Below are positions 2,834-51,617 of a DNA stretch of 64,000 bases, in pieces. A program made the translations under genes and the position numbers. The stretch lies in IMG/VR virus record IMGVR_UViG_3300010430_000004, positions 1 through 64,000 of that record. The stretch is one strand, 5' to 3'. Source of the stretch: a virus. Each line of letters begins with the position of its first letter. The first letter of the stretch is position 1. The notes below the pieces were generated by a model that was not told where the DNA came from, ran no database searches, and was given only the letters and a program-made list of their open reading frames with translations.

Positions 2834-3109
2834 TTATTTGTTGCTTTTTAGAATACCCAAATAAAGGTATTTAAACTTTTCTAACTTAGATTTCATATAA
2901 TAGATAGGGTCATCCCAGTGCCCATAAGCCCAATAAGCAGTATTATATCCACATTTTTGACACTGTGCATGGCACTCTAAAATAGTGTGTCCATCTAAGG
3001 TATCATCTACTATTGTTTTTAATTTTCTGCTTAAACAATTATGACACCTTCTAGGGCTAAAGACCAAAACTGGAAATATAAATAAATAATTTATGATTGA
3101 TTTTATCAT
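2834..3109 (-). CDS. hypothetical Zn-ribbon protein
   Basis: CHNC and CQKC motifs; overlaps the upstream gene stop. Confidence 0.55.
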   Translation of the reverse strand: MIKSIINYLFIFPVLVFSPRRCHNCLSRKLKTIVDDTLDGHTILECHAQCQKCGYNTAYWAYGHWDDPIYYMKSKLEKFKYLYLGILKSNK

Positions 3110-3417
3110 TTTATATTTTCTGGATCTTGTTCAACCCACTCATAAGATTTACGATTTCTCATAATAATTTGGGAAGCCATATCCATAGATATTCCAGCTT
3201 TTTCTCTAGCCATGCCAAGGTTGTAACCTTTGGTATATAACCATTTTATGAAAGTTTCTTTCTGCTCTTTAGTAAGTTTAGCATATTCACTGTCTAATTC
3301 GTCTTTGCGTTTCTCTTCCCAAGACCTAGAGTCTTTGGTAGAGGCACCCATTTTTCTGAGATATGCTTCACGTTCTTTTTTGTCCAATTTAGCTCCTAAA
3401 TAACGAAGTTCCATCAT
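3106..3417 (-). CDS. hypothetical protein, possible HTH
   Basis: NLGMAREKAGISMDMASQII resembles an HTH. Confidence 0.55.
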   Translation of the reverse strand: MMELRYLGAKLDKKEREAYLRKMGASTKDSRSWEEKRKDELDSEYAKLTKEQKETFIKWLYTKGYNLGMAREKAGISMDMASQIIMRNRKSYEWVEQDPENIK

Positions 3418-3540
3418 GCTTGGTATATTTTACACTAGTTAACAAATTGAATTGTTCAATTTTATCAGGATTTTCATCTAATACTTCGCAAAATCTTTCA
3501 TAAGAAATTTCAACTTCTTCTTTAACAGACATAATTCTCC

Positions 3541-3759
3541 TTATTGATAGATATCTCTGGAATAACATTTATATTCATATTCTTCAAGCGTACAACGCCT
3601 GATAACGGTCTTATCTTTTCTAGAATGTACACAGGTAATATTGGCTGTAGCGTCCATTTTGTAACAACCATTTAAATTTTTCTCAGGAGCTTTTACACTA
3701 ACGCATCCTGATAATAGAAACAAACAACTAAGAGCTAACTTTAACATATTTTTTCTCAT
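3541..3759 (-). CDS. small lipoprotein
   Basis: Signal peptide with lipobox LSGC; four further Cys. Confidence 0.6.
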   Translation of the reverse strand: MRKNMLKLALSCLFLLSGCVSVKAPEKNLNGCYKMDATANITCVHSRKDKTVIRRCTLEEYEYKCYSRDIYQ

Positions 3760-4168
3760 ATCCTGCCATTCGTAAAGCATTTTCAATTAAATCTGATAAT
3801 ACAAAGCTTTCAGGTTTTCCCTGAATTTCAGTTTCAATATCTAGAAGTGTAGAAACCAAAACATTGCTTATATACACTAAATTTTCTGTTTCGCTCTTTA
3901 AAGAATTAAGTTCACTTTTAGCTCTAAAAGCTTCTTTAAAAAGGATATCTTTTTCTTGGACCAAGGCTCTGATATATTTGTGAGGGTTGGCTTCAATATC
4001 TTTTTTTAATTTTTTAACGCCCTGATCTTTAGCAGTTAGCGCCTTTTTGTAATCTTCTCTACTAGCGTCTAGTCTATCAGGCAATTTTCCATTCTCATCA
4101 TTGGCAGCAGCTTCTACTGCCTTAAGTAAGGCATATTCAGCACGTTGGATCTCTTCTAACGTTGCCAT
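3728..4168 (-). CDS. hypothetical coiled-coil protein
   Basis: 146 aa; TAATG coupling to the AAA gene. Confidence 0.65.
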   Translation of the reverse strand: MATLEEIQRAEYALLKAVEAAANDENGKLPDRLDASREDYKKALTAKDQGVKKLKKDIEANPHKYIRALVQEKDILFKEAFRAKSELNSLKSETENLVYISNVLVSTLLDIETEIQGKPESFVLSDLIENALRMAGYEKKYVKVSS

Positions 4169-5193
4169 TATCTAACCCCTATTCCTACTCCACCTTTTTC
4201 AGAAAATCCATTATTAATTTTCTCTTTGTGGTTGAGCATTTCCTCTACTACTTCACTATAAGTTTTGCCAGTTAAACGGCTACGAATTACTATTTCTTTA
4301 ATATGGGCTATTGAGAATTTTCCATTTTCTACTTGACTACTTCTTAGAGAAGCTTTCTCATCTTCATCTAATTCACGCTTTCCAATAAATTCTGCTAATT
4401 TAATTCTTTCTTCAGCACTTGGAGGTGGAAGTTTAATCATCTCATCAAAACGTCCAGGTCTATCAGCTAAGGCGCTCAGCAGATTTGCTGGATAGTTAGT
4501 AGTAGCTATAGTAAAGGTTGGAACCTTGAAAGTAACAGAATTACCATCAAGAAGAGCAAGAAGACTAGAATCTACTGATCTGTTACCTGAAAATTCTTGT
4601 TCTCCACCGCCAATGTCTTCAATGATAAAAATTAAACGACTGCATTCTGGAGTAAACTCTGTACCAATGCTAAAGAAGGACTCAACACTACTTGACTTAA
4701 TTGCTGAAGTATTCCAATTAATTACAACAGTATTGGGGTCTTCTTTATAAAAATCTTCACAAAGAGAGTTAATTGCACTAGATTTGCCAAATCCAGGGTC
4801 AGAATATAGGAGAATGTTTCTGACCTTTGGCTGTCCCAATTCTTCATAGATTTCAAGACTATTAAAGAATTGAGTGGCTCTGCTTTTGATACTTTTTGTA
4901 TTATCTATAGATTCCAATAAGTTATGTTTTTTAAGAGTAAAGGGCTCAAGATCAACACCAGCCATTGTGGAGACCATTGTAAAAATTCCAGGCTTAATTT
5001 TGAGCTTTTTTCGCTCTTTCTTTTTCTTACCTTCTACATATTTAAATTGAGCAACATGAGTCTCTGTCTGAATAGACAAATCACTAGTGCTTAGTTCAGT
5101 CTTGGTACCGTTAATGATATCTTCGAGTAGAGTTACTTCTAAAACCTTAAAATGGTTGTCCTCTCTAGGGCCTTTTACTTCATCACTGCTCAT
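4168..5193 (-). CDS. AAA+ ATPase
   Basis: Walker A variant SDPGFGKS, Walker B IIEDI, TTNYP, ALADRPGRFD second region of homology. Confidence 0.9.
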   Translation of the reverse strand: MSSDEVKGPREDNHFKVLEVTLLEDIINGTKTELSTSDLSIQTETHVAQFKYVEGKKKKERKKLKIKPGIFTMVSTMAGVDLEPFTLKKHNLLESIDNTKSIKSRATQFFNSLEIYEELGQPKVRNILLYSDPGFGKSSAINSLCEDFYKEDPNTVVINWNTSAIKSSSVESFFSIGTEFTPECSRLIFIIEDIGGGEQEFSGNRSVDSSLLALLDGNSVTFKVPTFTIATTNYPANLLSALADRPGRFDEMIKLPPPSAEERIKLAEFIGKRELDEDEKASLRSSQVENGKFSIAHIKEIVIRSRLTGKTYSEVVEEMLNHKEKINNGFSEKGGVGIGVR

Positions 5194-5218
5194 TTATTGA
5201 TCTCCTTATTTAACTCAT

Positions 5219-5226
5219 AAATATCG
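5219..5226 (-). promoter_or_regulatory. putative middle promoter variant (CGATATTT)
   Basis: YGATAYTA variant heading the minus-strand AAA operon. Confidence 0.45.
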
Positions 5227-5235
5227 TAATCTTTA
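5227..5235 (+). promoter_or_regulatory. late promoter motif
   Basis: TAATCTTTA followed by GGAGG and ATG 5251. Confidence 0.7.
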
Positions 5236-5250
5236 TTTTTTGGAGGAATT

Positions 5251-5775
5251 ATGAAATTACAAGAAAAGCTTACTATAGCCTTTGGATCACCAGAACTGGC
5301 TAAAGAATTAATTGAACGTTTTGAGAAAAATGACCTAGTTGGTCTAGACGAAGCTGCTCTAGCTAGTGCTCTAGGAAATACCGATATGGCTAGAAAAATC
5401 ATGGAAAGTGCAGATATTGAAGCTGCTTAATTGGCCAACTGCCTATCCAGTCCTGAACTTGCTGAAGAGTTACTTAAGCTAAGAAAGCCTAAGAAAGCTG
5501 CCAAGAAAAAGAAAAAGAAGGAAACTGAAGAAGAAAAAGAAGCTAAAGCTGCTGCAAAGGCCGCTGCTAAAGCTGAAGCTGACGCTAAAAAAGCTGAAGC
5601 CGCTGCCAAGAAAAAGGCCGAAAAAGAAGCTAAAGCTGCTGAAAAGAAAGCTAAAGCTGCTGAAAAGGCTTTAAAGACTTTAGATGCTGATGGCGATGGT
5701 GACGTAGATGATAAAGATCTAAGTATGCTTGAAAAAGCCGCTAAAAAGATGAAAAAGATAGTCTCTAAAGACTAA
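5251..5775 (+). pseudogene. late gene with one in-frame TAA (5428-5430): helical repeats, Lys/Ala-rich tract, EF-hand-like DADGDGDVDDKDL
   Basis: The frame from ATG 5251 continues through the TAA into ORF 5431..5775; the repeat unit LxxxxGSPELAxEL lies on both sides of the stop. Confidence 0.6.
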
Positions 5776-6368
5776 TCGTGCCTAGTCTCTACTAATGTAG
5801 TTACGAAGTGCGTATAATTGCCTAACTTATATTCAAGCTGCAAGCTATTTTCTTGCAGCTTTTCTTTTATTTGATTCATAACAGACCATACAAAATAGAA
5901 ATTCTTAGGCATAATATCCACTGCTTGGGCTCTAAATATTCCAGTACAACTTAGTCTCATTCGTCCAGACATATCTTTGTCTAGGTAAAAATGCAATTCT
6001 CTACAGCATTTGGCACTGTCTGTATCTTCGTGGTAAAAAGGGCCACCAACAGATATGATTGCTCTTTTAGATTTGGGAAACTCAGATAAACATTCAGCGG
6101 TTATGCTAATTTTTTTATCCATCCAAGGCGAGTAGTTTCCTTGTTCTCCACCTTGATATTCACTAAATAGTTTCATTTCTTCTTTAGTTGGTTTAATATT
6201 AGTGTTTTTTTTAGCATAGGCTACTAAAGTAGCTTTATCAAAAAGCTCAGTTTCAACTGTCATTTTCTCTTCATTAACATCTACTATAGTAGATGTATAA
6301 TTTCTTATAGGAAAACTAGAGTCATTTAAATAACCAATAAGAGTTTTAGCACAATTATAAAACCTCAT
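5772..6368 (-). CDS. divergent thymidylate synthase / hydroxymethylase-fold protein
   Basis: PKSKRAIIS, KCCRELHF, LSCTGIFRAQ and PKN align with TS motifs (P.SRR.I.S, PC...QF, RS.D, P.N). Confidence 0.7.
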   Translation of the reverse strand: MRFYNCAKTLIGYLNDSSFPIRNYTSTIVDVNEEKMTVETELFDKATLVAYAKKNTNIKPTKEEMKLFSEYQGGEQGNYSPWMDKKISITAECLSEFPKSKRAIISVGGPFYHEDTDSAKCCRELHFYLDKDMSGRMRLSCTGIFRAQAVDIMPKNFYFVWSVMNQIKEKLQENSLQLEYKLGNYTHFVTTLVETRHD

Positions 6369-7243
6369 TAGAAAACAGCGCCCTCTTCAGCAATTTTAGC
6401 ATATTCTCTTGGCCATTCTTCTTTATAAAATTTAAGGAGCCTTTGTTTAGCCTGCTCTGTAGTAATTTCATTAACAAAACCTGGACTGTCTAAACTTATT
6501 AATTTTCTAGTTTTTTCACTAAACGGTTCTAGGCCAATGAAATGGCAAGGATCAACGTCAAAACTTCTAATGCCTACAAAAATACGTGGCTTATCAAGAG
6601 GACGTACAAAATGTTCCAGTCTAATATTGTCGAAAATAATAAGGCTGCCTTTTTCATGGGTTGGGTGAATTTCAGTATCTGTTTTAGTGTCATAAAAACT
6701 AGTACCTTGAACATCACCAGTATTGTTGTTTTCAACATTAAAGCCGAAAATATACTGATTATATAGGGCCTCTTTAACTTTAAAAGCTTTTTCATCAGTT
6801 AGTTCATAAGACATATAATTTCCATCTCTATGCCTACGAAGAAATTTGGAAGCCCCAATATTCTCTGATTGACTATACATTTGCCAGTTTACCATTTTTC
6901 TATTATTAGATGGCACTTCATAACCAAGTAGTTTGCTTAGTACAGCGTCATGGAAACGCATCATATCTTTTAAAACAATGCCTTTGATTTTTACATTAGG
7001 AAGCTCGTTTTCTTGTCCCTCTTCAATATACATATGAGCATGGCTTTCACGAGTGTCGCTTTTCATAGAGGGATATACAGCGTTTGTTTTTAAATTTTCA
7101 GGAGTATAGTTAGCTTCGTTGTTCATTGGAATTTCTACTTTAATGGCTATCATTTCTCCAGGAGTAAGGAAGTTTTCAACCTTATAATACCCTTTTTCTT
7201 CAAGTGATTTTTTCATTTCTTCAATATTAATTCTACTAAGCAT
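6368..7243 (-). CDS. 2OG-Fe(II) oxygenase superfamily protein
   Basis: HRD...GTSFY...GSLIIFDN..LEH.V...PR: HxD..H triad plus distal Arg. Confidence 0.8.
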   Translation of the reverse strand: MLSRINIEEMKKSLEEKGYYKVENFLTPGEMIAIKVEIPMNNEANYTPENLKTNAVYPSMKSDTRESHAHMYIEEGQENELPNVKIKGIVLKDMMRFHDAVLSKLLGYEVPSNNRKMVNWQMYSQSENIGASKFLRRHRDGNYMSYELTDEKAFKVKEALYNQYIFGFNVENNNTGDVQGTSFYDTKTDTEIHPTHEKGSLIIFDNIRLEHFVRPLDKPRIFVGIRSFDVDPCHFIGLEPFSEKTRKLISLDSPGFVNEITTEQAKQRLLKFYKEEWPREYAKIAEEGAVF

Positions 7244-7251
7244 TGTTTCTC

Positions 7252-7407
7252 CTAATATATTGCAAATATTCTCTTACTGTGCAGGTTTGTCCATTTTCCT
7301 AACCAACGAGCAGTGTAAAAGTGACAGGCCAATTTTGGAAAGTCACAATGTCCTAATTGATCTTTTTGATGAAAATGCAGGATACCAAAAATAATTGGTA
7401 TTTTCAT
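7252..7407 (-). CDS. small hypothetical protein (51 aa; not in ORF track)
   Basis: ATG overlaps the kinase stop (TAATG) and fills the gap to the oxygenase RBS. Confidence 0.5.
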   Translation of the reverse strand: MKIPIIFGILHFHQKDQLGHCDFPKLACHFYTARWLGKWTNLHSKRIFAIY

Positions 7408-8123
7408 TATGCTTCCTTTGCTACTGAGTCCGAAATAGAAATATCATATTTTTCTAGAACTTTAGCCACTTTTTCTTGGACCTCAAGAATAGAGTCATCT
7501 TCAGAAACTTCAACAACTTCCATTGTAAGATTTCTAAGAACATCATAGTCTTTTAATTGCTTTAAAAAGCTAATAACACGTTCTTGATTATCTAAGTTTT
7601 CAAGACGCTCAACAATAGGTTCACCAGTAGTTTCTGCACGTTTTCTAATACGCTCAAGTGGCCACTTAACGTCATCTGGAACCATTACAATATTTAATAC
7701 TCCAAAATCTTGATTGAGAATTTCTTCAGCATGGATAACTTTGGCATGGCACTCTGTAATTTGTTCAAGAGTCATACCTTTAGCAAGAGCATAAACTAGG
7801 TGACTAGCAATGGCTCTATCTTTCAATACCACTCCGTTTGGATTGTCTTCTAGAAATTTGCGAGCAATTTTAATACCTTCAAGATCAGTAAGAGCAAAGA
7901 GTTGTTCCTCTAATTCCACAGAATCCACTGGAAACTTGTCATGTAAAAGTACAGTTCTTAATGCCAGTTGATAGTCATCGGTTTTATCTCCACCGAGAAG
8001 TCTAGTTGAATGGATGTTTGCACCTTTAGCTTGAAGAGCCATTTTTAGTTGATTTAATTGTGTGCTTTTGCCCAAACCATCAGATCCATCAAAGCTGACA
8101 AACTTAATACTTTTCTTGCTCAT
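7407..8123 (-). CDS. tmk: thymidylate (dNMP) kinase
   Basis: FVSFDGSDGLGKSTQ P-loop, DR..S..VY motif, ERLE lid. Confidence 0.85.
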   Translation of the reverse strand: MSKKSIKFVSFDGSDGLGKSTQLNQLKMALQAKGANIHSTRLLGGDKTDDYQLALRTVLLHDKFPVDSVELEEQLFALTDLEGIKIARKFLEDNPNGVVLKDRAIASHLVYALAKGMTLEQITECHAKVIHAEEILNQDFGVLNIVMVPDDVKWPLERIRKRAETTGEPIVERLENLDNQERVISFLKQLKDYDVLRNLTMEVVEVSEDDSILEVQEKVAKVLEKYDISISDSVAKEA

Positions 8124-8580: not shown

Positions 8581-9410
8581 TGGCCGATTTTTCTGATAGC
8601 AAAGACTATGGAACAGCTATATACCCTGTTCATGCTAAAGAGGCAAGTGATCTATTTTCTAGAATAGAACCTATTCTTGTACCAAAAAAATTGATATCTA
8701 GGTATTTGAAAGGCATAAACCTAAACTTTAAAGATGGTTCCACCCTTGATAGTGAAGATCTAAAAGATAGAATTAATATGGCTATGAATGAATTCGAAGA
8801 GCTCACTGGTATTTTAGTAAGCCCTACAGTCATTAAACAAAAAGTGCCCTACGATAGAGCATTATATAGACAATATATGCACGTTAAATCTGAAAAAGCC
8901 CCTATAATGAGTCTATTCAGCTTTAGAATTGTGTCAGCTGGTGGAGATGAAATTTTTGAAATTCCCATAGAATGGATCGAAGCTGCTGGTTTTTCATACG
9001 GGCAAATTAACGTCATTCCACTTCTTCAAAGCTATACAAGCATGGGTGTTGCTGCTCAAGGTAGTGGTGGAATAGCACTACTTTCAATTTTAGAAAACTC
9101 TTTTCATTTTGTTCCAAGGTTTTGGGAAATAGAGTACACTACTGGGCTTTGCAACAAAGACGGTAGATTGCCAAGTATAGTGAATCAAGTAGTTGGCATG
9201 ATTGCTGCTATTGAAATTCTTAGCGAAAAAGCTGCCGATGATGCTGATACTTCAGTAAGCATTAGCAGAGATGGAGTGTCTCAATCACGTTCAGGTCCTG
9301 GAGCTGCTAAATACCAAGCAAGAATAGATAAGCTTGAGGAAAAGAAAGATAAATTGATTGAAAAACTTAAAGGTAGATTTTCTAGAAAGTATTTTGTCGG
9401 GAATTTCTAA
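8580..9410 (+). CDS. putative head-tail connector/adaptor
   Basis: Position; C-terminal SVSISRDGVSQS followed by a helix, as in myophage adaptors. Confidence 0.6.
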   Translation: MADFSDSKDYGTAIYPVHAKEASDLFSRIEPILVPKKLISRYLKGINLNFKDGSTLDSEDLKDRINMAMNEFEELTGILVSPTVIKQKVPYDRALYRQYMHVKSEKAPIMSLFSFRIVSAGGDEIFEIPIEWIEAAGFSYGQINVIPLLQSYTSMGVAAQGSGGIALLSILENSFHFVPRFWEIEYTTGLCNKDGRLPSIVNQVVGMIAAIEILSEKAADDADTSVSISRDGVSQSRSGPGAAKYQARIDKLEEKKDKLIEKLKGRFSRKYFVGNF

Positions 9411-10021
9411 TGTCTCTATTTAAAAAGATGCAAAAACAAGAAATTGTCATACTTGAGAAGGGTTTTGTTAAAAACACTATAATGTCTAGTATGTTAGGTG
9501 CAGCTGCCGCCTTAAGCACTCCAGCTAACGCTGGTGATAGAGACATAGCAAGCGTACAAAAACCTAGAGCTGAAGCTCCAGCTAGTCAATTTAATAAAGA
9601 TCAGATATTAGATGCTATAAAAACTGTGGAATCCTCTGGTGGAAAAGACACGAATCACAAAGTAGTCAACTCTGGCCTCAACGCTGGAACTAGGTCTTCA
9701 TCTGCTTATGGAGTAATGCCGATTACAGCTAAGGATATTATCAGTAAGAATAAAAATCTAAAAGCCAAATATGGTCACTTGCTTGATATGAAAGGCGATG
9801 AATTTCACCAAGAATATCATAAGGATCCTGATCTGGATAGAACTATAGCTAGTCATTATTATGACAAATCTGCTAAACTTTTCGGCAATGACCCTCACAA
9901 AATAGGGTATTCTTGGCTAAATGGCAGATCAGGTGCTATGAAAGCTGTAAAGTCTGGAAAAGACATCAAAAATCATTGGCACGTTAAAAAAATAATAGAT
10001 GCTTTAAAATCTTCTAAATAA
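9410..10021 (+). CDS. lytic transglycosylase (SLT/lysozyme-like)
   Basis: AIKTVESSGG catalytic Glu motif, AYGVMPITA, SWLNG. Confidence 0.75.
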   Translation: MSLFKKMQKQEIVILEKGFVKNTIMSSMLGAAAALSTPANAGDRDIASVQKPRAEAPASQFNKDQILDAIKTVESSGGKDTNHKVVNSGLNAGTRSSSAYGVMPITAKDIISKNKNLKAKYGHLLDMKGDEFHQEYHKDPDLDRTIASHYYDKSAKLFGNDPHKIGYSWLNGRSGAMKAVKSGKDIKNHWHVKKIIDALKSSK

Positions 10022-10063: not shown

Positions 10064-10561
10064 ATGTTGATTGACCCAAAAGAAATTGCTGACGTTTCAG
10101 ACGTTGGAACCCTTGACAGAAAAGACAAAGTCAAGATGGTTAAAACTATTGGTGGATTAAATCTAGCAGTCGGCAAAGATGGCTCTAGTAATGAAAGAAT
10201 TCTAGCCTATGCTTCCCATCCAGCTATTGTAAAGCACCAACTTAGAAAACGCTACAGTTCTCGTTTCGCTGAAACTATGCAAAAAAATGAAAGTGGAGTT
10301 TCTGAACAAGCCATTTCTTATGAAAAGAATCTTAGTCCTTTGCTTAAAAATAACGGATATGATATTTACTGCCTTAAAAAAGGCACAGAAGCAAAGTTTG
10401 TAGTTACTTGTGATAACATGGAAATTATGAGCAGCGAGATTAGTGACACTAAAGTAGAAAATGCCAATATCAAAAATAACGATAAATATAAAGAGTTTAG
10501 TCAAAATGAGGGCAAAGAAGCCTTAGTTAATTCTATTAAACAGTATATTTCAGGAGAATAA
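10064..10561 (+). CDS. hypothetical virion/internal protein
   Basis: RBS AGGAG; late promoter. Confidence 0.65.
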   Translation: MLIDPKEIADVSDVGTLDRKDKVKMVKTIGGLNLAVGKDGSSNERILAYASHPAIVKHQLRKRYSSRFAETMQKNESGVSEQAISYEKNLSPLLKNNGYDIYCLKKGTEAKFVVTCDNMEIMSSEISDTKVENANIKNNDKYKEFSQNEGKEALVNSIKQYISGE

Positions 10562-10562
10562 A

Positions 10563-10844
10563 ATGAAACTCAAATATCCAAGTGATTTGGAAAAAGCCCA
10601 AAAACAAACTCCAACAGCAGAGTCGGTTCACCAAGATCATATGAAAACCTCTGACAGTATGAAAGAGCATTCTTATAAGGGACACAAGATTCATACTTTT
10701 GATAAAAATGGCGATCACACATTTTCAGTAAATGGAAAAGCTGGACACTATTCTGGTGCTCAATATGAAGATGCTTGGAGCAACGATCATAAGGGAGCTT
10801 TAAAAAACGCAAAAAAACATATTAATAAAAAATTAGGAAAGTAA
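10563..10844 (+). CDS. putative internal head protein (MKLKY..DLEK leader)
   Basis: N-terminus shared with the 17447, 52321 and 54852-55151 genes. Confidence 0.6.
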   Translation: MKLKYPSDLEKAQKQTPTAESVHQDHMKTSDSMKEHSYKGHKIHTFDKNGDHTFSVNGKAGHYSGAQYEDAWSNDHKGALKNAKKHINKKLGK

Positions 10845-12171: not shown

Positions 12172-13050
12172 ATGAAAGACTACCGTTCTATTTGCAAAAC
12201 TATTTTAGGTGACGATATATTTGAAACTCTTCAAAAGTTTGAAATATATAAGCCTAATACAAATACTGCACTAGATCCTAGAGAACTAGAAATAGCAATG
12301 CAAGTAGTACCTAGAACTATTCTTTCTTATGTTAGCAACTGCGTAGCTGGCATGAAAGCTGGAGAAGTAAGAGAATGTTCTATACCTTTTGGCGAAAATG
12401 CTAATTGGACAATAAATAAACACGGCCCAGATGATTATAACGGAGAAATTAGAGAAAATAATAAAGTAAAATATGACTTTAAATATAGAAGTATTCCAGG
12501 AATGGCAATGCTTCTTATGACTAGTTTTGAGCTTTATGATTTTAATGATTTAGAAGAGAAAAAGGAAACCGCTCCACAACCAGACACTTGCAAAATGCAA
12601 GAACTTATTGATGAGAGATTAAAGATTTATGACCTTATTAATAGTGTAGTTTCTAATAAGATGGAAGTTAGGGAAGCTAGAGAGCAATTTATCAATGAAA
12701 AACTTAACAGAATCATTGCTCAATTAGAGGTACAAAAGACTATGGAAGATAATGCCAATCAAAAGAAAGACCTTAAACTTAAACGATTCCTTGAAGCCAA
12801 GGCTAAACCAGAGCAAAAGGAATTTGAAATTTCTTTTGAAAAATCTGAAAAAGCTATATGTGGTGATTGTGGATCTTCTTTATTTGATTCTGCTGGGTGG
12901 AAGTCTGGTTGTATCTGTTCAGGAGATGACCGGAATAAAAAGGTTTGGTTGAAGAAAACAGAAGGTGGAGTAAAGCTTAAGTTTTCTAAGGGTTGGGATG
13001 AAGAGAATGTTCAGATGTTGCTTCAAAGTTTGAAAAAGGTGAGAAAATAA
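12172..13050 (+). CDS. hypothetical protein with C-terminal Zn ribbon
   Basis: CGDC...CIC after an FEKS motif. Confidence 0.65.
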   Translation: MKDYRSICKTILGDDIFETLQKFEIYKPNTNTALDPRELEIAMQVVPRTILSYVSNCVAGMKAGEVRECSIPFGENANWTINKHGPDDYNGEIRENNKVKYDFKYRSIPGMAMLLMTSFELYDFNDLEEKKETAPQPDTCKMQELIDERLKIYDLINSVVSNKMEVREAREQFINEKLNRIIAQLEVQKTMEDNANQKKDLKLKRFLEAKAKPEQKEFEISFEKSEKAICGDCGSSLFDSAGWKSGCICSGDDRNKKVWLKKTEGGVKLKFSKGWDEENVQMLLQSLKKVRK

Positions 13051-14657
13051 TGTCAAAAAAAGATTATAGTTATATAAAAAATGCCAATATTCACCACACA
13101 GTTGATGATGTTGATCACAAGGGACATAAAATAACAACAAAAGTAATGTCTCACAAAAATGGTGGAACATACGCTCATGCCTTTATCAATGGAAAACCCC
13201 ATGGCAATGCTGAAATGAACACCGAAACTGCTCATGGCAAAGCTAGAGATCATATAGATAAGAAAACAAGTGTTAATAAATCTGAAGGTATTGACGCTCA
13301 GAATGAACAAAACCACAAAGAAATGTACAATGAAAATCCTAAACCTAGAAGCGTTACTAAGTTCGTGGCCTTTAATGCTAATAATGTTTCTTCTAAATTA
13401 GTAGACCACATCAATGCTAACGACCATGTTGGTCTTTCGCAAGCTTCTCAAAACTTACATGATGCTGCTGATGTTATTTCTAGTTGGGTAGAAAATGCTA
13501 GAGGTACAGTGGTATCACGAGCAGCTGACGAAATCATAGCTATGGTTCCAGAAGAGGCTCTTGGCTCTATTGAAGAAGTTAAAGCAAACTATAAACAACT
13601 CTCTGGACATGACCTTACTTGTGGTATTGGTGACTCTCTTGCCGATGCTGCAAACTCTCTTATTGGAAACAAAAATGGAGATGAAGCTCTTGAAGAAAAT
13701 GACGAAAATGACCAAATTGATGAAATAGATCAAGAAATGGACGAAGTAGCTGAAGATATTGCCAGTGATGGCTCTGAAGATGTTGATCAAGACGGCGTTG
13801 CTGATTCTGATGAAGAACATGGTGAGATTGATCCTGAAATGGACGATGCTAATGCTGATGGTGAAGTGGACCATGAAGAAGCTATGCAAGATGAGCAAGC
13901 TCCACCTGAAGGTGATGTTGCTGAAGAAGATTTTGTTGAAGGTGAAGCTGCTGCTTCTGAAGTAGAAGATCAAGCCGGAGAAGAAGCCGCTGAAGAATAT
14001 TCTGAAGAAGTACCCGAAATGGATGATACTCAAGAAGTTCCTGAGCATGAAGAAGGATTAAATCCTGAAGAAAAACAAATACACGATGCTACTGAGTCTG
14101 AAACTGACGAGCAAGAAATTGCTGAAGAACAAGGCTCTGAAATTGCTCAAAGAGATGAACAGGATTCTGATATGATTGAAGAGAATATGGAACAAGAGCA
14201 AGAAATGGTAGATCCAGCTCAAGAAGAAATGCCACCTGAAGGTGAAGAAATGGCAGAGGGCAACCTAGAGCCAGAAGAGCAAGAGCTTTTTGACCTATTG
14301 TCTCAAGATCTTAACGATGAACCTGAAAGCGCCACTTTACATGACGCTAAGGCTAGAATTGTTGAAACCTTAAATAACCTTAAAGCAAATAAAGATAGTA
14401 TTGAAGCTATGAAGAGTCACGACCCTGAAGCTTATGGTACTCTTATTGAATTTATTAGAAGTATGATTGATATGGCCAAACAAGTAAGATCTGAGGAGGG
14501 TGCTGAAGATATGGAAGCTGCTCCTGAAGACGATACTGAAGGGGCCTCTAGTGAAATGCCACCTGAAGGTGAAGAAATGGCAATGCCTGAAGAAACTGAA
14601 TCTGATGACGATGAGTCTGAAGAGGAGGAAGAAGAGGTAAAAAAGCCGCAGGGGTAG
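13050..14657 (+). CDS. large acidic protein with degenerate mCpol-like domain; -1 frameshift at its 3' end
   Basis: aa ~104-208 follow the mCpol pattern with DGD->NAN and GGD->AAD; E/D-rich linker; A_AAA_AAG four codons before the stop. Confidence 0.75.
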   Translation: MSKKDYSYIKNANIHHTVDDVDHKGHKITTKVMSHKNGGTYAHAFINGKPHGNAEMNTETAHGKARDHIDKKTSVNKSEGIDAQNEQNHKEMYNENPKPRSVTKFVAFNANNVSSKLVDHINANDHVGLSQASQNLHDAADVISSWVENARGTVVSRAADEIIAMVPEEALGSIEEVKANYKQLSGHDLTCGIGDSLADAANSLIGNKNGDEALEENDENDQIDEIDQEMDEVAEDIASDGSEDVDQDGVADSDEEHGEIDPEMDDANADGEVDHEEAMQDEQAPPEGDVAEEDFVEGEAAASEVEDQAGEEAAEEYSEEVPEMDDTQEVPEHEEGLNPEEKQIHDATESETDEQEIAEEQGSEIAQRDEQDSDMIEENMEQEQEMVDPAQEEMPPEGEEMAEGNLEPEEQELFDLLSQDLNDEPESATLHDAKARIVETLNNLKANKDSIEAMKSHDPEAYGTLIEFIRSMIDMAKQVRSEEGAEDMEAAPEDDTEGASSEMPPEGEEMAMPEETESDDDESEEEEEEVKKPQG

Positions 14658-14678
14658 GTAGCAAGTCTCTCCCTACCC
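14623..14678 (+). other. programmed -1 ribosomal frameshift signal
   Basis: AGGAGG (14623-28), 10 nt, A AAA AAG (14639-45, in frame), hairpin GGGTAGG/CCTACCC (14652-78). Confidence 0.85.
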
Positions 14679-14878
14679 AGGCTACCAAACACGTTAGACG
14701 TAAACAAATGCCATACGGTGCAACCAATGCTAAGGGTAAACTTAAGTATAAAGGTTCGCAAGGAAAACGTAGAAGCATAGATGCTAAACTTGGTATGCAC
14801 ATTGATGGGGCAACTGGAGATCTTGACCACGGAAAAGCTAGACCGAGGGGCAAAAAGAAACCGTCAGAAGGCGTATAA
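14645..14878 (+). CDS. -1 transframe extension, 77 aa basic peptide (not in ORF track)
   Basis: Open -1 frame AAGVGSKSLPTQ...KKKPSEGV ending in a TAA that overlaps the next ATG (TAATG at 14876-80). Confidence 0.8.
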   Translation, partial: AAGVGSKSLPTQATKHVRRKQMPYGATNAKGKLKYKGSQGKRRSIDAKLGMHIDGATGDLDHGKARPRGKKKPSEGV

Positions 14879-16674: not shown

Positions 16675-17376
16675 ATGTCTAAGATTTATACCCCACAAGA
16701 AGTGGTTCAAGAGATTACAAAAAGCTTAAAATCTAAGCTTAAAGAATATGCTAGACTTAAAGGCAAGAAAGCTGTTGAAGACCTTGAAGATAATGATCAT
16801 TTGCCAGAATTAGAAACAACTCCTAGCCCTGATAAAGAGATTCTTACAAAAGCCAAAATAGACACTGTTAAATATGGAAAAGAAAAAGGTGGAGATTCTT
16901 CTATCGCTGCTAGAGCAATGAAACACAATGATAGACAAGATAGAGCCCATGATCTTGGACAAGCTGATAAGAAAAGATTTGAAACATCTGCTGAAAGACT
17001 CAAATCTAAAAAAATAAGCAATGCTGCTAAACCTCTAGACAAATCTAACTATGGTCCCAAAGGTGGAGGCCAATATTCTCAAGCAGATAATGAACGTAGA
17101 AAAAATAGCATTCATGGTAATGTAGGTGATATAAGTAGTGAATATTCTTCAGTAAAAATGAAAACTGGAGCCAATGCTTCTGGTGGACAAGGTAAAACTA
17201 AGTTCAATGAAGATATGAAAAAACTTAAAGCTAAAAATAAAAAGCAACCAGTTACCTCTATGAAAGACATGAGTCCTGAAAAGAAGGCAAAACTAAAAGA
17301 ACTATATGAAACTAAAGTAAAAAAGAGCGAAAAACTCAAAAACTTGTTGACTAAAATTAAAGAAAAAGGTAATTAA
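16675..17376 (+). CDS. Lys-rich putative internal head protein
   Basis: Low complexity; ITKS, LTKA, LDKS, VKKS motifs. Confidence 0.6.
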   Translation: MSKIYTPQEVVQEITKSLKSKLKEYARLKGKKAVEDLEDNDHLPELETTPSPDKEILTKAKIDTVKYGKEKGGDSSIAARAMKHNDRQDRAHDLGQADKKRFETSAERLKSKKISNAAKPLDKSNYGPKGGGQYSQADNERRKNSIHGNVGDISSEYSSVKMKTGANASGGQGKTKFNEDMKKLKAKNKKQPVTSMKDMSPEKKAKLKELYETKVKKSEKLKNLLTKIKEKGN

Positions 17377-17417
17377 TTGAAATTATTAGAGATTTTTATT
17401 TGCGAAGTTTGTAGTAA

Positions 17418-17426
17418 TAATCTTTA
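17418..17426 (+). promoter_or_regulatory. late promoter motif
   Basis: TAATCTTTA. Confidence 0.7.
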
Positions 17427-17446
17427 TTTAAATATCGGAGTTTAAT

Positions 17447-18274
17447 ATGAAACTTAAATACGGAAGTGACCTTGAAAAGAAGGCACCAAATTCAAGCTTT
17501 GAATACGACCATCCGCAACACGGAAAGTTGGAAGTAAATGCTCGCGTTGCTCCTAATAGTGGCAAAGTAAAGCTAAAAAGCGTAGGTGTTAAGGACGATA
17601 TCCATATTGGGGTAAAAGAGGCTGGTATTTCTAAAGAGCACAAGAAAGCTATGAGAGAAAAAGCTTCAAAAACTGGTATAACAAAGTGTGGTGATATGAG
17701 TACTAAAAAGACAGAAAAATCTGAAAAAATGGAAAAATCTGAAAGAGATGTAGCTGTTGCTATTCTTGATAAAGTTAGAGAACTTGCTAAGGGCCATAAC
17801 AGCTCCCATGTTGTTGAAGAAGGTAAAAAAATTACTCCTTCTGATTCAGAGCGTGTATCTGAATCCAAAGTTGACGGTTCTGAGTCTGATGATGTTGAAA
17901 CTACTCATGCAGATGACAAAAAGAACAGCGAAGATTCTAATAGAACTGAGCGTTTTGAAGACCAACGTCATCCTGAAGTACGTGGATTAGATAAAGATAA
18001 GACTAAAAAGAAAAAAGATTCTGAAGACGATGATGAAGATGAAGACAGCAAAGATAAGTCTAAGAATATGGAAAAGAATGAAAAAGTAGCTCAAGCTATG
18101 GTTGATAAATCTAAAGAAATTTCTGCTAAGAAACAAAAAGACCAAAAAGCTAAAGAAGCTAAAAATATGAAGATTGTTGACAAGGTTATTAAAGAACACC
18201 CTGTAACAAAATCTGAAAAACCTCTTGTCGCTTTTCTTAAAAAAAGAGAAGCTAAAATAAAAGGTGATCAGTAA
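17447..18274 (+). CDS. charged putative internal head protein (MKLKY..DLEK leader)
   Basis: Shared leader; MEKS, LAKG, MEKN, VTKS motifs. Confidence 0.6.
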   Translation: MKLKYGSDLEKKAPNSSFEYDHPQHGKLEVNARVAPNSGKVKLKSVGVKDDIHIGVKEAGISKEHKKAMREKASKTGITKCGDMSTKKTEKSEKMEKSERDVAVAILDKVRELAKGHNSSHVVEEGKKITPSDSERVSESKVDGSESDDVETTHADDKKNSEDSNRTERFEDQRHPEVRGLDKDKTKKKKDSEDDDEDEDSKDKSKNMEKNEKVAQAMVDKSKEISAKKQKDQKAKEAKNMKIVDKVIKEHPVTKSEKPLVAFLKKREAKIKGDQ

Positions 18275-51442: not shown

Positions 51443-51530
51443 ATCTATGCTATCTTACCCTGGAAAGGCGTATTGAATCATTCTGCGGATTCTGTAGGAA
51501 AGTAAGTCATAGATAGGGAGTAATTGCCCT
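51443..51530 (+). ncRNA. structured RNA 5' of the tRNA-like element
   Basis: ATCTATG/CATAGAT, CTTAC/GTAAG, CCT-GGAA-AGG, GAATC/GATTC. Confidence 0.5.
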
Positions 51531-51599
51531 GGAAAAGTAGTTTAATTGGTTAAAACCCCCTCGTTGAGGGGAATGTCGGTTCGAGTCCGGCCTTTTCCG
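51531..51599 (+). tRNA. tRNA-like element (Asn GTT-like) with anticodon arm 4 nt too short
   Basis: GGAAAAG/CTTTTCC, GTTT/AAAC, CCCTC-GTT-GAGGG, GTCGG-TTCGAGT-CCGGC; no CCA. Confidence 0.75.
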
Positions 51600-51617
51600 A
51601 TTTTTTTAGGAGAATTT

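Follow-up and report, generated by a model that had tools for sequence, protein, structure and literature searches.

Residues 104–212 of ORF 13050–14657, which encodes a 535-aa protein (P0001) in a large uncultured phage, are confirmed as an mCpol domain; the copy is well folded and, judged from its residues, almost certainly catalytically inactive. The literature we found describes mCpol only as the bacterial Panoptes synthase (PMC12657218, PMC12657230, PMC13577387), and a search made mostly without subscription papers returned no phage-encoded or dead mCpol. With confidence somewhat above even, we read the domain as an mCpol-derived pseudo-enzyme that would act as the folded dimerization module of a core late head-packaged protein of Mx1-like myoviruses. 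The fold, the losses of the catalytic aspartate and of phosphate-binding residues, the purifying selection, the protein architecture, and the gene position are established by computation. The features concerned are as follows.

13050–14657, + strand: ORF P0001 (535 aa), a core gene in Mx1-like phages, flanked by homologues of 12172 and 14878
13050–13271, + strand: variable His/Lys-rich N-terminal module (aa 1–74), not homologous in the closest relatives
13272–13286, + strand: V-N-K-S-E (aa 75–79), putative head-protease site of the form hydrophobic-x-Lys↓Ser-Glu, from motif statistics
13359–13685, + strand: mCpol palm domain, pseudo-enzyme (aa 104–212), from Pfam, profile, AlphaFold2, and Foldseek comparisons
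13374–13391, + strand: degenerate metal and triphosphate loop, with N109 (OptS D6), A110 (G7), N111 (D8), and S114 (G11)
13446–13460, + strand: base-recognition helix, with S133 (OptS S30, kept) and H137 (N34, changed)
13521–13532, + strand: hairpin AADE, in which D160 is OptS D57, kept
13686–14273, + strand: acidic, probably disordered linker, about 40% Asp+Glu, following the domain
14349–14483, + strand: conserved helical domain (core aa 434–478), from profile comparison
14639–14645, + strand: slippery heptamer A AAA AAG of a predicted −1 ribosomal frameshift
14652–14678, + strand: hairpin 6 nt downstream of the slippery site (z −1.7 when taken alone)
14639–14878, + strand: −1 frame basic beta-hairpin tail domain, 79 codons (P0155), from codon differences and AlphaFold2

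Gene setting and fold of the domain

The window, the whole 64,000-nt stretch that was analyzed, opens a complete virus record of 168,536 bp. The capsid protein encoded in it shares 52% identity with the Myxococcus phage Mx1 capsid protein and ~25% with those of SPO1-type phages; the source virus is an Mx1-like myovirus. P0001, whose ATG overlaps the stop of the upstream gene, belongs to a co-oriented block that runs from 8194 to the sheath (18561) and tube (20721) genes, among neck-type genes. The order 12172 homologue–mCpol gene–14878 homologue recurs in nearly all fetched loci with flanking DNA (exceptions L029, L030, and L034), and the Mx1 ortholog (WNM70340.1 in OR576727, annotated hypothetical) occupies the equivalent position. 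The mCpol gene, found in 252 clusters, is a syntenic core gene of Mx1-like phages and behaves as one; the co-oriented block and its conserved order bear out the late-protein placement made by a first-pass annotation of this DNA. Both neighbors, 12172 and 14878, are conserved phage structural-block genes, and neither has a Pfam match to a Panoptes effector of the 2TM-beta or CARF-TM type. A genome-wide search with PF18153 gave no match, as did its controls, and PHROGs holds no family for the P0001 protein.

Several further features of these loci were recorded. In L029 (8458–10032) and L030 (7288–9813), a D6N-type mCpol domain, preceded by LKKAE, lies upstream of a 2175-aa ORF in a non-neck context. 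In the window, an opposite-strand block (2834–8123) with a thymidylate kinase gene (7407–8123) separates the capsid gene from the neck genes, a layout matched in L055. The close relative L002 carries several GIY-YIG homing endonuclease-like ORFs in the operon (1357–2211 and 7332–8081 on the + strand, 6516–7268 on the − strand), of which the window has none. A 203-aa ORF (9410–10021) looks by eye like a lytic transglycosylase (VESSGG motif) and has no Pfam or PHROGs match; its counterpart is part of 350–1650-aa polyproteins in relatives and, in Mx1, of a 1479-aa protein annotated as a NUDIX hydrolase. ARAGORN reported a single doubtful tRNA (51530–51600) in the whole genome vs. 22 in Mx1. A scan of bacterial genomes with intact-clade patterns gave at least one match, an 8-kb contig in a Deltaproteobacteria MAG among the matches listed; with ORF sizes like those of the phage block, this contig is probably binned phage.

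All motifs quoted in the first-pass annotation lie in frame in ORF 13050–14657, with codon 13359 encoding K104 and codon 13671 encoding K208. Pfam mCpol (PF18182) matches at 33.9 bits (E 4.5e-8; model positions 2–97 of 114) against a gathering cut-off of 26.4 bits and is the sole Pfam match above cut-off in P0001. A GGDEF diguanylate cyclase identity was rejected: PF00990 scored 14.5 bits vs. its cut-off of 23.8, and the motif here is AADEI rather than GG(D/E)EF. The domain sequence alone, ~22% identical to OptS, matches KpOptS weakly (E 0.08), and a profile built from 142 relatives recovers KpOptS (9mnr) at E 2e-19 and mCpol 9nwn at E 4e-19. The AlphaFold2 model of the domain has a pLDDT of 92.8, and its best Foldseek match is KpOptS (9pd0; E 2.5e-7, TM 0.78, rmsd 2.4). 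KpOptS chains fill the top five places, ahead of GTP cyclohydrolase III, GGDEF, adenylyl cyclases, and Cas10. The fold is thus palm-type and closest to KpOptS, as the mCpol-like assignment of the first-pass annotation had it, and not an unrelated one.

Active-site decay across the phage family

In KpOptS, D6 and D57 bind metal and S30 and N34 bind the base (PMC12657218), the active site is shared between two protomers (PMC12657218, PMC12657230), and substitution of D6 or D57 by Asn, singly or together, abolishes product (PMC12657218). The DGD→NAN change proposed for the window is real (N109, A110, N111). First-motif changes are common to other samples (NAS in P0003, from L001 and L002; NAN in P0004), and a sequencing artifact was rejected because independent assemblies carry like substitutions. 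N109 is the D6N substitution that by itself inactivates KpOptS (PMC12657218), which upholds the proposed catalytic death. The companion claim, that AAD is a broken GGD, does not stand, because active KpOptS itself reads AAD at the equivalent place and D160 is the catalytic Asp57.

Beyond the aspartate, P0001 lacks the phosphate-loop Gly/Asp/Gly, two of three conserved lysines, and the hairpin glycine G159, which is present in 141 of 149 family members. The earlier suggestion of a nucleotide binder is thereby weakened for this copy; what stands is that retained S133, D160, E161, and K208 may still allow residual metal or nucleotide contact. Position 137 (OptS N34) is variable across the phage family, intact members included.

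An exhaustive search gave 252 clusters at 50% identity; the analysis covered the best 150 of these, which biases the sample toward the window sequence. A word-index homologue search had given a single relative, tblastn of the window domain against GenBank phages gave no match, and the Mx1 ortholog was reached only with an intact relative as query. Among 149 family members from the best 150 of 252, position 109 carries Asp 76 times and Asn 71 times, so that about half of the sampled relatives look intact, the kind of homologue that the first-pass annotation proposed to seek. D111 is present in 146 of 149 and is near-fixed, as are G114, D160, E161, K202, K208, and the Lys of a closing G-K motif; D160 and E161 are invariant. 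The phage proteins probably descend from an active cyclic-oligonucleotide synthase. As a separate observation, P0045 and P0054 are ~300-aa proteins with two matched stretches, possibly tandem mCpol domains, and without the acidic tail.

A quick IQ-TREE tree (143 domains, 121 columns, midpoint-rooted, with Mx1 placement unsure) puts all 67 Asn109 rows on one side of a single branch: one change, SH-aLRT 92, against a shuffled mean of 48. The topology suggests a single origin for D6N, in a clade that holds 67 of the 143 sampled domains. Within this clade Asn is fixed, while D8, G11, G-D-E, and the three lysines remain at 89–100%. The conserved nucleotide site hints at binding without catalysis, and clade members are candidate nucleotide-binding pseudo-enzymes.

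This pattern of single origin, fixed Asn, and preserved site, which looks like selection for binding without turnover, favors a noncatalytic nucleotide binder: a sponge or sensor of NTPs or cyclic oligonucleotides, delivered with the genome. The window copy keeps S133 and K208 alongside the D160/E161 pair, and the composite pocket of its dimer model is geometrically intact. The window and P0003 have nevertheless lost most of the site residues and Mx1 all of them, and sponging up the Panoptes signal would trigger Panoptes, in which the OptS signal restrains an effector and loss of the signal sets the effector off (PMC12657230). We regard this explanation as unlikely overall; it suits the D6N clade as a whole better than the window copy.

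Inside the D6N clade, a long branch of 0.97 changes per site leads to the window and P0003. At 33 positions that are each at least 85% fixed in the clade, the window has lost 16 and P0003 17, whereas most members have lost 0–3. Losses in the window include G110, D111, G114, G159, K202, and K211, and those of the pair fall mostly in the phosphate loop, the hairpin glycine, and two lysines; core residues W146, P167, Y181, G192, G194, and L129 are kept in the window. The distribution points to a second wave of decay in the window subclade, after D6N. The Mx1 copy lacks both aspartates, and catalysis appears to have been lost at least twice, in the D6N clade and in Mx1, by separate routes.

Against L002, dN/dS is 0.145 for the domain and 0.085–0.124 for three neighboring structural genes, a comparison of one pair only with near-saturated synonymous sites (dS about 1.2). 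The domain is under purifying selection: the fold is maintained, and the chemistry is not. These values bear on the alternative that the domain is a vestige without a role, folded only because a needed carrier (helical domain plus basic tail) is attached to it and misfolding would be harmful. Repeated, independent active-site decay, the long branch to the window subclade, and the near-universal helical domain fit such a vestige. A dN/dS near that of core structural genes speaks against it, as does the pairing of domain and gene position, which is missing from one short fragmentary ORF pattern only, among loci that were fetched for having the domain. We hold a vestige to be improbable.

An enzyme still active through a remodeled site, with one metal or another reaction, is very doubtful. 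Asn can ligate metal, and the window keeps the family-invariant D160/E161 pair; against this, KpOptS is inactive with D6N as its only change, and the window has also lost the triphosphate loop and lysines.

Dimer prediction, processing site, and frameshifted tail

Two-copy prediction of the window domain gave a homodimer score of 0.71 against 0.00 for the best control, with runs agreeing in at least 94% of contacts and partner pLDDT of at least 88; the mark used is cleared by 20 of the 30 solved homodimers and by 1 of the 23 single-chain proteins. In the model, helix 2 (L129, S133, H137) packs against the partner hairpin (V155–D160), as in the active OptS dimer. Mean family frequency is 0.43 of a possible 0.59 at the tightest interface residues and 0.34 of 0.79 on the triphosphate side, which places the interface nearer to family consensus. 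An OptS-like homodimer is thus predicted for the window domain, in support of the oligomeric scaffold listed among earlier options, although the score may mirror only likeness to solved OptS and an alignment dominated by less degenerate relatives.

The same option list held a dominant-negative decoy that would pair with host OptS or Cas10 and poison signal synthesis. The shared fold and the predicted OptS-like dimer surface speak for it, but identity to OptS is low, the Cas10 palm pair is intramolecular, and the gene behaves as a fixed structural-block gene, unlike a patchy anti-defense gene. We consider the decoy most improbable, because, with host OptS poisoned, the inhibitory signal would disappear and the killing effector of Panoptes would be activated, to the harm of the phage.

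The remainder of P0001 surrounds the domain with parts of very different conservation. Identity to the L002 ortholog is 79% in the mCpol domain and 19% in the N-terminal module, which is different again in P0004, P0005, and P0008; 135 of 151 family members lack an N-terminal extension. A small His/Lys-rich ORF at 10563–10844 is present, among the fetched loci, in the window genome only; its likeness to the P0001 N-terminal module was seen by eye and set aside as not significant (E 0.12). Across the family the acidic linker has a median length of 225 aa and 38% Asp+Glu. Of the 134 family members that reach 300 aa, 129 have the helical domain, as does Mx1; this domain has no Pfam match, and all its Atlas matches are under 0.9.

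VNKSE closes the N-terminal module, and its P0003 counterpart is VEKSE. The wider motif occurs 17 times in N-terminal extensions of the mCpol-protein family vs. 2.5 expected, six times in the presumed scaffold (602–1369), and once at capsid residue 10 (LVKAL). KSE, mostly with a hydrophobic residue two places earlier, is enriched in head-block proteins (8.5x, 4.9x, and 3.6x) and not in neck, sheath, or tube proteins; over whole mCpol proteins its enrichment is just 1.7x. Across the window, the hydrophobic-x-Lys-Ser/Ala-Glu motif marks 602–1369, 1387–2760, 10064–10561, 12172–13050, and 16675–18274. In these scaffold, capsid, and head-block proteins the motif likely denotes head-protease sites, and by its statistics VNKSE is a putative one, by analogy with T4 core proteins (PMC9958956). 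A literature search on Lys-specific capsid cleavage in Herelleviridae found no confirming paper, and one on Mx1 virion proteomics found none. A second analogy is the Lys-specific capsid trimming of SPO1/A511-type phages. From motif and gene position we infer that P0001 is cleaved and packaged in the virion, from which it would be ejected into the host.

At its 3′ end, P0001 is predicted to undergo a −1 frameshift at A AAA AAG that adds the basic tail. The −1 frame stop overlaps the ATG of the next gene, and the frame differs from L002 by 27 synonymous and 12 nonsynonymous codons. Slippery site and homologous basic tail recur in 24 distinct locus proteins, a count that includes the window's and some near-duplicates; in 8 loci and in Mx1 the tail is encoded in frame. 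At the equivalent place, relatives have hairpins of other sequence (mean z −2.0; 22 of 25 negative); the window hairpin may extend to a pseudoknot via GGTAGC/GCTACC. The tail model (pLDDT 84.6) is a small beta-hairpin domain with no Pfam, PHROGs, PDB-sequence, VIA, or structural match. In dnaX and IS3-type −1 frameshifting, A AAA AAG is likewise followed by a downstream hairpin, the spacing of 6 nt being shared; unlike in those cases, the P0001 shift appends a basic domain, which in some relatives is encoded in frame.

Under the pseudo-enzyme reading, P0001 would be made late and built into the prohead together with the scaffold. The head protease would trim after Lys77, freeing the variable N-terminal module, and what is left of the protein would pair via the old OptS-type interface: the mCpol fold, the acidic linker, and the helical domain, whether or not the frameshifted basic tail follows. 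An active ancestor would have lost catalysis on each of the routes above and retained the carrier role. Mx1 counts for this reading as an infectious cultured phage whose ortholog, at the equivalent place, lacks both aspartates.

Relation to known systems and implications

The P0001 domain is an mCpol family member, yet neither an active OptS nor a Panoptes system. With OptS (9mnr, 9pd0, 9nwn; PF18182; PMC12657218, PMC12657230, PMC13577387) it shares the palm fold, the AAD hairpin with Asp57, Ser30, one C-terminal Lys, and a predicted symmetric dimer. It differs in the change of Asp6 to Asn, the degraded phosphate loop, its fusion into a 535-aa acidic phage protein, and its place in a phage head/neck operon rather than a bacterial defense locus with an adjoining 2TM-beta or CARF-TM gene.

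The Mx1 protein resembles P0001 in gene position, an mCpol-like N-terminal domain, an acidic/proline linker, the helical domain, the tail domain, and one KSE site, and is unlike it in the separate route of its aspartate losses, its in-frame tail, and the absence of an N-terminal module. The proposed logic, nonshell proteins placed in the core and trimmed by the prohead protease, parallels that of T4 IPI–III and Alt, which are processed by gp21 (PMC9958956); no sequence or fold link connects them, the proposed cut follows Lys rather than Glu, and processing of P0001 is itself putative. Degenerate GGDEF domains and the inactive Cas10 palm also keep a palm cyclase fold without catalysis, as binding or pairing modules, but belong to other families and serve as cellular regulators or as part of a single chain, not as a phage late protein.

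New here, as alignment and tree suggest, are three points: D6N has a single origin, it coincides with a published inactivating mutant, and the window subclade went through a second wave of decay. A broader reading, which we offer as speculative and hold at low probability, is that Mx1-like phages carry a core, head-packaged, injected Panoptes-type synthase in three states: active (DGD/GGDE), D6N binder, and fold-only scaffold. The D6N clade would then bind nucleotide signals without turnover, a new type of sponge or sensor made from a synthase, and the window and Mx1 copies would be the fold-only scaffolds. If true, the three states would form a natural series in which an immune-signal enzyme becomes a structural component of a phage.

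Across hundreds of Mx1-like phages the gene holds a fixed head/neck place, whether its mCpol domain is intact, carries a single substitution, or has fully decayed. This raises the testable question of whether phages, from within the virion, make or bind nucleotides of the Panoptes/CBASS type. Dead copies matter as a control because they show that the protein has a job needing no catalysis. Mx1 escapes the M. xanthus CBASS/type III-B island that stops Mx4 (PMC11506125); since it is also cultured and its host genetically tractable, tests are feasible now.
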